From Eledone cirrhosa (Eukaryota), in assembly GCA_964016885.1 (NCBI GenBank), contig CAXHJY010001102.1, positions 1 to 64,000 on the forward strand: a stretch of DNA of 64,000 bases. Reading direction: 5' to 3'. Below the pieces are notes generated by a model. The model was given only the letters and a program-made list of their open reading frames with translations, ran no database searches and was not told where the DNA came from. How positions within the stretch are numbered: position 1 is the first letter of the stretch; each line of letters begins with the position of its first letter. Shown piece by piece: positions 8,583 through 15,018 of the stretch. A program made the position numbers and the translations under genes.

Positions 8583-11500
8583 TAAACGGAAAAAATGAAA
8601 CGATATTTCATTTCCCACTCTTAGTACGGCTGTTACTTAAATATAAGTATGTACACGTACATACATATATGTATACCGACGTACAGTAGTATGTATCTAT
8701 ATATATACATACATGCACACATATATATATGCACGTATGGATTCACCGAACATTTATTATAATGCTCGGTGTGTTTGTAAACAAACATCCCGTATTAAGC
8801 CGTAGTGTCTAGCAACCACCGTTGCTCGTTTGTTCAACACTGACAAAGGAACGCTGTACTAGTTTCAAGCTTGTTAGCTATCGTCAGCAACGTATACCTT
8901 CCTGCCAGATTGTTGAACGTATATACTTACCTTATGCATATTAACGGCTGAGTAGCCCAATATGCATATCGAGTGGGTTAATCGGCCGGGTGCACCGAAA
9001 ACGATAAACGGAAAAAATGAAACGATATTTCATTTCCCACTCTTAGTACGGCTGTTACTTAAATATAAGTATGTACACGTACATACATATATGTATACCG
9101 ACGTACAGTAGTATGTATCTATATATATACATACATGCACACATATATATATGCACGTATGGATTCACCGAACATTTATTATAATGCTCGGTGTGTTTGT
9201 AAACAAACATCCCGTATTAAGCCGTAGTGTCTAGCAACCACCGTTGCTCGTTTGTTCAACACTGACAAAGGAACGCTGTACTAGTTTCAAGCTTGTTAGC
9301 TATCGTCAGCAACGTATACCTTCCTGCCAGATTGTTGAACGTATATACTTACCTTATGCATATTAACGGCTGAGTAGCCCAATATGCATATCGAGTGGGT
9401 TAATCGGCCGGGTGCACCGAAAACGATAAACGGAAAAAATGAAACGATATTTCATTTCCCACTCTTAGTACGGCTGTTACTTAAATATAAGTATGTACAC
9501 GTACATACATATATGTATACCGACGTACAGTAGTATGTATCTATATATATACATACATGCACACATATATATATGCACGTATGGATTCACCGAACATTTA
9601 TTATAATGCTCGGTGTGTTTGTAAACAAACATCCCGTATTAAGCCGTAGTGTCTAGCAACCACCGTTGCTCGTTTGTTCAACACTGACAAAGGAACGCTG
9701 TACTAGTTTCAAGCTTGTTAGCTATCGTCAGCAACGTATACCTTCCTGCCAGATTGTTGAACGTATATACTTACCTTATGCATATTAACGGCTGAGTAGC
9801 CCAATATGCATATCGAGTGGGTTAATCGGCCGGGTGCACCGAAAACGATAAACGGAAAAAATGAAACGATATTTCATTTCCCACTCTTAGTACGGCTGTT
9901 ACTTAAATATAAGTATGTACACGTACATACATATATGTATACCGACGTACAGTAGTATGTATCTATATATATACATACATGCACACATATATATATGCAC
10001 GTATGGATTCACCGAACATTTATTATAATGCTCGGTGTGTTTGTAAACAAACATCCCGTATTAAGCCGTAGTGTCTAGCAACCACCGTTGCTCGTTTGTT
10101 CAACACTGACAAAGGAACGCTGTACTAGTTTCAAGCTTGTTAGCTATCGTCAGCAACGTATACCTTCCTGCCAGATTGTTGAACGTATATACTTACCTTA
10201 TGCATATTAACGGCTGAGTAGCCCAATATGCATATCGAGTGGGTTAATCGGCCGGGTGCACCGAAAACGATAAACGGAAAAAATGAAACGATATTTCATT
10301 TCCCACTCTTAGTACGGCTGTTACTTAAATATAAGTATGTACACGTACATACATATATGTATACCGACGTACAGTAGTATGTATCTATATATATACATAC
10401 ATGCACACATATATATATGCACGTATGGATTCACCGAACATTTATTATAATGCTCGGTGTGTTTGTAAACAAACATCCCGTATTAAGCCGTAGTGTCTAG
10501 CAACCACCGTTGCTCGTTTGTTCAACACTGACAAAGGAACGCTGTACTAGTTTCAAGCTTGTTAGCTATCGTCAGCAACGTATACCTTCCTGCCAGATTG
10601 TTGAACGTATATACTTACCTTATGCATATTAACGGCTGAGTAGCCCAATATGCATATCGAGTGGGTTAATCGGCCGGGTGCACCGAAAACGATAAACGGA
10701 AAAAATGAAACGATATTTCATTTCCCACTCTTAGTACGGCTGTTACTTAAATATAAGTATGTACACGTACATACATATATGTATACCGACGTACAGTAGT
10801 ATGTATCTATATATATACATACATGCACACATATATATATGCACGTATGGATTCACCGAACATTTATTATAATGCTCGGTGTGTTTGTAAACAAACATCC
10901 CGTATTAAGCCGTAGTGTCTAGCAACCACCGTTGCTCGTTTGTTCAACACTGACAAAGGAACGCTGTACTAGTTTCAAGCTTGTTAGCTATCGTCAGCAA
11001 CGTATACCTTCCTGCCAGATTGTTGAACGTATATACTTACCTTATGCATATTAACGGCTGAGTAGCCCAATATGCATATCGAGTGGGTTAATCGGCCGGG
11101 TGCACCGAAAACGATAAACGGAAAAAATGAAACGATATTTCATTTCCCACTCTTAGTACGGCTGTTACTTAAATATAAGTATGTACACGTACATACATAT
11201 ATGTATACCGACGTACAGTAGTATGTATCTATATATATACATACATGCACACATATATATATGCACGTATGGATTCACCGAACATTTATTATAATGCTCG
11301 GTGTGTTTGTAAACAAACATCCCGTATTAAGCCGTAGTGTCTAGCAACCACCGTTGCTCGTTTGTTCAACACTGACAAAGGAACGCTGTACTAGTTTCAA
11401 GCTTGTTAGCTATCGTCAGCAACGTATACCTTCCTGCCAGATTGTTGAACGTATATACTTACCTTATGCATATTAACGGCTGAGTAGCCCAATATGCATA

Positions 11501-11857
11501 TCGAGTGGGTTAATCGGCCGGGTGCACCGAAAACGATAAACGGAAAAAATGAAACGATATTTCATTTCCCACTCTTAGTACGGCTGTTACTTAAATATAA
11601 GTATGTACACGTACATACATATATGTATACCGACGTACAGTAGTATGTATCTATATATATACATACATGCACACATATATATATGCACGTATGGATTCAC
11701 CGAACATTTATTATAATGCTCGGTGTGTTTGTAAACAAACATCCCGTATTAAGCCGTAGTGTCTAGCAACCACCGTTGCTCGTTTGTTCAACACTGACTG
11801 ACAAAGGAACGCTGTACTAGTTTCAAGCTTGTTAGCTATCGTCAGCAACGTATACCT
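8583..11857 (-). mobile_element. Retrozyme-like tandem array, left arm: ~7.8 copies of a 422-bp unit, hammerhead sense on minus strand
   Basis: TAAACGGAAAAAATG recurs at 8583, 9005, 9427, 9849, 10271, 10693, 11115 and 11537 (period 422). The only difference seen between copies is a 4-bp TGAC duplication at 11795-11802. Each unit holds a hammerhead core on the minus strand. Confidence 0.85.
8851..8893 (-). ncRNA. Type I hammerhead ribozyme (also at 9273, 9695, 10117, 10539, 10961, 11383, 11809)
   Basis: Same motif on the minus strand; predicted cleavage between 8857 and 8856. Confidence 0.88.
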
Positions 11858-14800: not shown

Positions 14801-15018
14801 AGCGTTCCTTTGTCAGTGTTGAACAAACGAGCAACGGTGGTTGCTAGACACTACGGCTTAATACGGGATGTTTGTTTACAAACACACCGAGCATTATAAT
14901 AAATGTTCGGTGAATCCATACGTGCATATATATATGTGTGCATGTATGTATATATATAGATACATACTACTGTACGTCGGTATACATATATGTATGTACG
15001 TGTACATACTTATATTTA
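11858..15018 (+). mobile_element. Retrozyme-like tandem array, right arm: ~7.5 inverted copies of the same 422-bp unit
   Basis: Reverse complement of 8638-11798 (mirror sum 23656). Ends at ...CATACTTATATTTA, running into (TA)n. Confidence 0.85.
12231..12273 (+). ncRNA. Type I hammerhead ribozyme, short palindromic helix III (also at 12653, 13075, 13497, 13919, 14341, 14763)
   Basis: ACGTTG-CTGACGA-T AGCT AACA AGCT T-GAAA-CTAG-TA^CAGCGT. Helix I ACGTTG/CAGCGT extends through AAGG/CCTT and GTTCAACA/TGTTGAAC. Helix II AGCT/AGCT is closed by U.U. Helix III is palindromic ACTAGT. Cleavage triplet GUA. Confidence 0.88.

Follow-up and report, generated by a model that had tools for sequence, protein, structure and literature searches.

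Animal non-LTR retrozymes are non-coding elements that consist of tandem units of a few hundred bases (about 150-450 bp, and up to about 1000 bp), with a GC content below 50% and one type I hammerhead ribozyme per unit. The helix III of these ribozymes is short and palindromic, which corresponds to the dimer-type architecture described for animal hammerheads (PMC4209133), the predicted RNA circles are highly paired, and Penelope-like elements (PLEs) are present in the same genomes (PMC7229834; 10.64898/2026.07.22.740005). A target-site duplication, when present, is longer than 4 bp. Expression and cleavage have been demonstrated for animal retrozymes, and among the retrozyme dimers of Xenopus, 8 of 9 did not cleave (10.64898/2026.07.22.740005). 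The connection between these elements and PLEs has been drawn from co-occurrence and from homology to the pLTR, the latter in 24 of 57 Xenopus families, and mobilization of retrozymes by PLEs is put forward as a hypothesis in both studies (PMC7229834; 10.64898/2026.07.22.740005).

The PLEs themselves show a complex insertion anatomy that includes partial tandems, an inverted 5'-truncated copy and a tail of 30-40 bp, often at one end, and the cause of the tandem and inverted structures has been called "still undefined" (Craig et al. 2021, PMC8557442); this anatomy and the retrozyme hypothesis are restated in PMC8969392. In vitro, both strands of AT-rich DNA are cut and extended by a PLE protein with a predicted dimeric form, whose reverse transcriptase (RT) begins at two internal sites, one on either side of the tail (Frangieh et al. 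2024, PMC11167929). Our literature searches identified no published link of PLE tails or inverted arms to retrozymes, and the main texts of Cervera & de la Pena 2020 (PMC7229834) and of Li, Clavereau & Pollet 2026 mention neither the "tail" nor inverted arms.

Here we describe a locus in the window, a stretch of 64,000 nucleotides of Eledone cirrhosa DNA (contig CAXHJY010001102.1), that bears on this connection. The locus is best read as a single, very recent insertion of a hammerhead repeat that is non-coding and abundant, probably a non-LTR retrozyme that was copied from a circular RNA by a PLE RT-endonuclease.

A two-armed array in (TA)n

The block at 8582-15018 has a period of 422 and had been described in an earlier note as a 15-copy concatemer. 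TRF yields two arrays rather than one, and these are reverse complements of each other that meet head-to-head at 11857; the entire block is a 6.4-kb palindrome in which the hammerhead strands of both arms are directed outward (Table 1). The 15 non-coding 422-bp units of the same description are borne out by the period, by the 15 cores (7 on the plus strand and 8 on the minus strand) and by the size of the ATG ORFs, none of which exceeds 51 aa, and only their apparent identity has to be amended: the complete units are identical except for the innermost left one, with its 4-nt duplication. The GC content is 0.37-0.39, and no tRNA gene was found. At the head-to-head junction, the two joined positions, unit 380 and unit 12, lie opposite one another in helix I. 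Given the (TA)n target, any target-site duplication is unreadable at this locus.

Table 1. Features of the two-armed insertion. Unit positions are counted from 12268, the first base after the predicted cut (unit 1).
Feature	Positions	Strand	Description	Basis
(TA)n target, left flank	8436..8581	.		TRF
Left arm	8582..11857	-	8 hammerhead cores in 7.8 tandem units; tailed outer end (3') at unit position 275	TRF + core pattern
59-nt "tail" (unit 217-275)	8582..8640	-	at the left-arm end only	
Head-to-head junction	11797..11857	.	4-nt duplication (innermost left unit), followed by the inversion, which joins unit 380 to unit 12 through 1 shared base	
Right arm	11857..15018	+	7 hammerhead cores in 7.5 tandem units; short outer end (3') at unit position 216-219	TRF + core pattern
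One type I hammerhead	12204..12294	+	helix I; core 12237-12267; predicted cut after GUA, 12267|12268	
Monomer, cut site to cut site (unit 1-422)	12268..12689	+	predicted highly paired RNA circle	
G160 allele (family: T)	12427..12427	+	in all 16 passes across both arms	
(TA)n target, right flank	15019..15480	.		TRF

The inversion of the two arms, which the earlier note overlooked, is the most informative feature of the locus because it contains the PLE signature, namely an inverted 5'-truncated arm, a one-sided tail and a TA target. It also indicates two priming events instead of one, and in this respect it modifies the origin proposed earlier, rolling-circle reverse transcription, from which a recent insertion and an RT origin compatible with a circular template can be retained.

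Fold-back chimeras are a known error of long reads, and the window comes from a small separate contig. Nevertheless, it is hardly credible that the palindrome is such a chimera or an assembly artefact, considering that the flanks are not mirrored, that the two arms end at different fixed sites, that the same layout is present on chromosome-scale contigs, and that the contigs of a public run, which may be the source sample, hold many different minus-to-plus joints at a depth of about 20-45 (15 listed and 43 more).

Elsewhere in the window, there are two long LINE-type frames with an RT on the minus strand (36513-39524 and 40779-43535), one of them with an APE endonuclease, with poly(A)-like runs nearby, as well as a 65-bp tandem repeat of 17 copies with 96% matches (46441-47547).

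The hammerhead motif and its conservation

All 15 units have an intact core with the motif CUGACGA-U-AGCU(AACA)AGCU-U-GAA-A(CUAG)U-A, accompanied by a long helix I. Helix II is formed by AGCU/AGCU with a U·U at its base, and helix III is a single A-U pair with the palindromic CUAG loop, followed by A17. The motif and the long helix I that had been noted earlier were both recovered by pattern and fold, with the same predicted cut position. The U·U (U10.1·U11.1), which was then considered unusual, is not so, with precedents in HHR_Amex2 from the axolotl (PMC7229834) and in the motifs of at least two host PLE families. Searches against Rfam detected no hammerhead match at the gathering score, and none in 12150-12750 at E values up to 10, where only sub-threshold miRNA-type matches to the AU hairpin were found; the hammerhead call therefore rests on the motif, the fold and the covariation. 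As a control, the reversed pattern gave 0 exact matches genome-wide versus 2,710 for the core, so that an occurrence of the core motif by chance is excluded.

When the monomer is folded as a circle, helix I spans the cut site and most of its pairs have probabilities of 0.85-1.0, and helix III is unformed. Helices I and II both have high predicted probabilities and are backed by pair counts. The predicted energy of the double hammerhead is -61.4 kcal/mol versus -44.6 for two monomer folds, so that the dimer fold is favored. Self-pairing of the monomer has a z score of -8.1, with 0/100 shuffles equally good, and the circular MFE is -143.9 for the hammerhead strand versus -118.9 for the opposite strand.

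Covariation was assessed on the hammerhead and on whole units. Among the 20 variants that were each seen at least twice, 94.8% of the cells pair, and helix I shows the changes UG to GU (6 sequences) and AU to UG (2). By two measures, the covariation of the hammerhead exceeds that of 500/500 shuffles, whereas by pair-count measures it does not (252 of 500). The whole-unit comparison covered 10 units belonging to two types, 422 and 460-484, with about 70% similarity once the AU hairpin is set aside; two-sided changes are present in 13/119 predicted pairs. This covariation mostly stems from one split between two subfamilies. The motif, the fold and the covariation agree with the earlier suggestion that this is a retrozyme-type element with what appears to be a dimer-type type I hammerhead.

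Helitron-like elements typically come with tandem copies, hairpins and AT targets. They also have fixed termini at both ends, whereas the 5' ends of the copies studied here lie at random around the unit. Furthermore, pairs are maintained via G·U on one strand, the one that folds better by 25 kcal/mol, and variability in 137 distinct copies, collected with a search motif that favors an intact core, is 2.6% in the core compared with 19% at N7 and 36% in loop II. Accordingly, a non-autonomous Helitron-like DNA element that is propagated by DNA rolling circle and carries a chance hammerhead-like motif appears highly improbable.

End pairing and templates across the genome

A BLAST comparison of the unit with the assembly, as the earlier note had recommended, retrieved at least 353 matches. 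Exact patterns identify, in addition to the 2,710 cores of the window type, 12,375 cores of the CUGAUGA type (more than 15,000 in all), as well as 3,652 tailed and 1,559 short ends that adjoin TA. For the analysis of the ends, we used the window together with 36 loci out of the 150 best matches listed (set A), 50 regions spanning the first tail-motif matches on C1 (set B), and 27 loci that were mostly hand-picked from the core lists, with overlapping small loci and two long arrays omitted (set C). In these 114 loci, a strict end-calling script identified 75 inverted pairs, along with 43 loci without an inverted pair. Both ends were called in 60 of the 75 pairs, 58 of which are tail+short and 2 tail+tail, with no short+short pair; the other 15 have an uncalled end. 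Upon inspection, the tail+tail call at L114 is a miscall, and L036, L053 and L056 became tail+short after inspection or extension, leaving L041 as the one true tail+tail case, with arms from two subfamilies. In sets A and C, where the end type was not a criterion of choice, 35/36 pairs are tail+short (binomial p 5e-10), and in set B, chosen by the tail motif, an inverted pair is absent in 24/50. A looser script returned 63 tail+short, 1 tail+tail and 4 short+short pairs; three of the four short+short pairs span no more than 70 nt, which points to false matches of the loose motif, and none of the four recurred in the strict script.

Among the young copies, a TA run of at least 4 nt adjoins 60 of the 61 called ends. 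The inner junctions (29 young ones) range from 8 shared nucleotides to 40 inserted ones, with ends scattered around the unit. In one case (L041:4229-4273), the left arm passes from the 422-type to the 465-type subfamily within a helix I strand, just before the inversion, as expected from a switch of template.

Li et al. 2026 (10.64898/2026.07.22.740005) suggested that the retrozyme arrays of vertebrates grow as satellites, and two long single-direction arrays in the present genome have this appearance, one with 91 cores in 40 kb and a 26-unit duplication (L209-L212, C1:97.00-97.04 Mb) and the other with 34 monomers (L188-L189, C1:53.35-53.37 Mb). Both arrays are degenerate, with a mean of 32-35 substitutions between units, and satellite-style growth occurs in this genome, too. 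At the locus in the window, a satellite that grew locally from a short insertion by unequal crossing over or slippage and was inverted later is already contradicted and has very little probability: such growth can yield neither fixed, paired outer ends in 58/60 dispersed insertions nor one inversion layout at 75 places with different junctions.

Several other arrangements of these repeats were detected. In some regions (L054, L059, L109, L190, L193, L194), insertions are stacked in one another's TA tracts, and the internal (TA)n hairpin is expanded in older copies. A 78-bp satellite that extends over more than 22 kb (L033:1-3232, L203, L215; C28:30851000-30873700) contains a hammerhead-like motif in each unit (CUGAUGA...GAAA, with a U·U at helix II) and runs directly into a retrozyme arm, inside the satellite's own core; L203 contains no ORF of 120 aa or more. 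The 5' flank of L033, which was considered as a candidate PLE hammerhead, belongs to this satellite, lacks an ORF of at least 120 aa and was rejected.

The variants shared by the two arms are informative with regard to the template. The pattern that includes G160 has 18 matches in 3.0 Gb, 16 of which are at this locus, in both arms, and the other 2 in a 420-nt haplotype; outside the locus, G160 was found in 2/524 units of the other loci examined. In the young set elsewhere, 35 variants occur in a single unit each, compared with only 3 that are present in several, which implies that spread after insertion is slow and that homogenization is an unlikely source of the shared G160. The simplest reading is that both arms represent one RNA molecule, or one clone of molecules, copied about 7.5 times from each end. 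Over 9 units of L132, monomers of 420 and 422 nt that are about 13 substitutions apart alternate (3 and 3 identical repeats), and this exact dimer period fits what is expected from a dimer circle. The 5' ends do not accumulate at the predicted cut site: 0/58 inner ends are within 8 nt of it, the genome-wide count is 16 compared with 13 at a matched control site (p 0.71), and 11/58 ends fall in unit 1-50 (p 0.08). The template was thus continuous at this site, that is, either a circle or an uncut multimer.

The latter option would involve the same PLE-driven, two-ended insertion, with a long uncut linear transcript of a genomic array as the template, a hammerhead that is slow or used elsewhere, and no circle. 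The fact that 5' ends do not accumulate at the cut site is explained equally well by such a transcript and by a circle, mixed arms are compatible with mixed transcripts, and possible sources exist in the form of the long arrays with 91 cores in 40 kb and with 34 monomers. In vitro, the anole PLE does not need hammerhead cleavage for insertion, so that hammerhead mutants insert, and uncut RNA is its main substrate (PMC11167929). However, this template requires a source with at least 8 G160 units, and the assembly has none beyond this locus and the 2 units found in another haplotype. As indicated above, both long arrays are degenerate, whereas young arms are uniform over up to 16 units (L057), and the exact dimer period at L132 likewise argues against a linear transcript. 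On balance, we consider a linear template rather unlikely and a circular one the preferred reading.

The relationship between the two arms is not the same at all loci. One side of L056 consists of 422-nt units and the other of 424-nt C396T units, and the ends are still tail+short; in older pairs, the arms often differ at subfamily sites. One template for both arms as a general rule is ruled out by L041, L056 and the older loci. Together, L056 and the older mixed pairs suggest that the end asymmetry may be set by the protein and the DNA ends, not by the RNA. The different templates of the L056 arms, the frequent disagreement within older pairs and the 24/50 tail-motif loci without an inverted pair weaken the reading of the insertions as PLE-made copies of circular RNA.

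Relationship to Penelope-like elements and a tentative model of insertion

Both in the window and in the family, the insertions combine an inverted 5'-truncated arm, a fixed one-sided tail and a microsatellite target. They resemble those of EN+ PLEs in these features, as well as in the partial tandems, the often AT-rich target and the two internal RT starts, and differ from them in the absence of an ORF, in the length of the tail (59 nt compared with 30-40) and in arms of up to 16 whole units (PMC8557442, PMC11167929). The pairing of a tailed with an untailed end is nearly strict here, whereas the in vitro work of Frangieh et al. revealed no difference in start site between the strands (PMC11167929).

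Autonomous PLEs are present in the same genome, as indicated by 150 GIY-YIG matches scored among 10,594 candidates and by ORFs that contain both RT and GIY-YIG. The host families with RT and GIY-YIG are arranged in (TA)n in the same manner as the retrozyme, and their tails, as read by eye, measure about 50-65 nt. By pattern only, host PLE families (L067-L096, L148-L156) carry hammerhead-like motifs in which C3/G8 are replaced by U3/A8 and, in some cases, GAAA by GCAA; the helix III loops of these motifs are all short and palindromic.

No sequence homology, including homology to the pLTR, was found between the unit and 39 PLE loci along with family F, which represent a small share of the PLE candidates. 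The tail of the unit and five PLE tails are no more similar than expected from shuffles, 291-815 of 1000 of which score as high. The GIY-YIG loci, a pattern combining a hammerhead with an ATG, and the foreign end at L207 yielded no partner PLE homologous to the unit. Long ORFs also occur next to retrozyme copies; where they have Pfam matches, these indicate a LINE or LTR type, and no match to GIY-YIG was obtained.

A possible direct contact with a PLE-type element was detected at L207:4846-5500, a two-armed insertion in which the left end is the short end of the retrozyme and the right arm ends in the 3' part of family F. This is an old PLE-type family with about 82% identity between long copies and a weak GIY-YIG match (E 0.026). 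The joint between the family F 3' end and the retrozyme contains a 9-nt match and lies in helix I. This arrangement could have resulted from a template switch; it is a single case, for which a later deletion is the alternative. Other family F 3' ends (L224, L230, L233, L234, L252, L259-L263) often have shared non-coding sequence beyond the tail, located either before or after them, which may represent a second tandem non-autonomous derivative.

Compared with the known systems, the family behaves like a non-autonomous PLE and is not an autonomous one. Wherever the analysis gave a clear answer, the sequence-level features of animal non-LTR retrozymes are present, and the unit contains no ORF carrying RT and GIY-YIG. 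Whereas animal non-LTR retrozymes have been tied to PLEs by co-occurrence and pLTR homology, the present family is tied to them by insertion anatomy, with no pLTR homology found among the 39 PLE loci, and whereas expression and cleavage have been demonstrated for the former, the latter is known from its sequence (PMC7229834; 10.64898/2026.07.22.740005). The non-autonomous elements of Chlamys, e.g., MRC1, are similar in being non-autonomous partners of PLEs with multicopy head-to-tail insertions in microsatellites, but generally share 3' sequence with an autonomous family and lack canonical hammerheads (PMC8557442, PMC9977147). Thus, the family is of a known kind, the animal non-LTR retrozyme, with unusually clear traces of the mechanism.

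We outline a tentative model of the insertion that starts from direct observations, namely the anatomy, the fixed outer ends and their pairing, the target, the random inner ends, the shared allele and the covariation. Transcription of an array would be followed by cleavage after GUA, with adjacent hammerheads acting as dimers, and ligation would turn the monomer into a circle of 422 nt. A PLE protein, probably in the form of a dimer, would then cut both strands of (TA)n, and a TA match of 3-5 nt would assist each of the target 3' ends in priming cDNA at its own fixed internal site, which is unit ~275 for one end and unit ~216 for the other. Each RT would roll around the template a variable number of times, occasionally slipping or switching to another template, and the palindrome would arise from the joining of both cDNAs at their random ends, a step involving little microhomology or none. 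Within this scheme, it is the cleavage, the RNA circle and the identity of the enzyme that we infer. L1 twin priming, in which both target ends prime cDNA, one at the poly(A) end and the other at a variable internal site, and an inverted 5' part results, offers a parallel: here, both target ends would prime cDNA as well, and the differences are that both sites are internal and fixed and that each arm can be multimeric.

A broader proposal, which we advance with some doubt, is that the insertions preserve, in the manner of fossils, the reaction of a PLE with circular RNA, in which the dimer would cut both (TA)n strands, prime the two ends asymmetrically, each end at a different one of the two fixed sites and frequently on a single circle, and roll around it. 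In the portions of the retrozyme and PLE literature that were searched, asymmetric priming on one circle was not found as a cause of PLE anatomy. If the proposal is true, such priming would explain in one step the one-end tail, the inverted copy and the partial tandems of PLEs, and the circles of animal retrozymes would be directly revealed as PLE substrates. If the circle and the single-template readings fail, what remains is an ordinary retrozyme family with PLE marks. An RNA of 422 nt, with thousands of recent insertions and two mapped start sites, is small and could be used directly in the in vitro assay that Frangieh et al. applied to PLEs, and the nearly strict end-pairing rule, along with the traces of a rolling circle, makes a question about PLE transposition directly testable.
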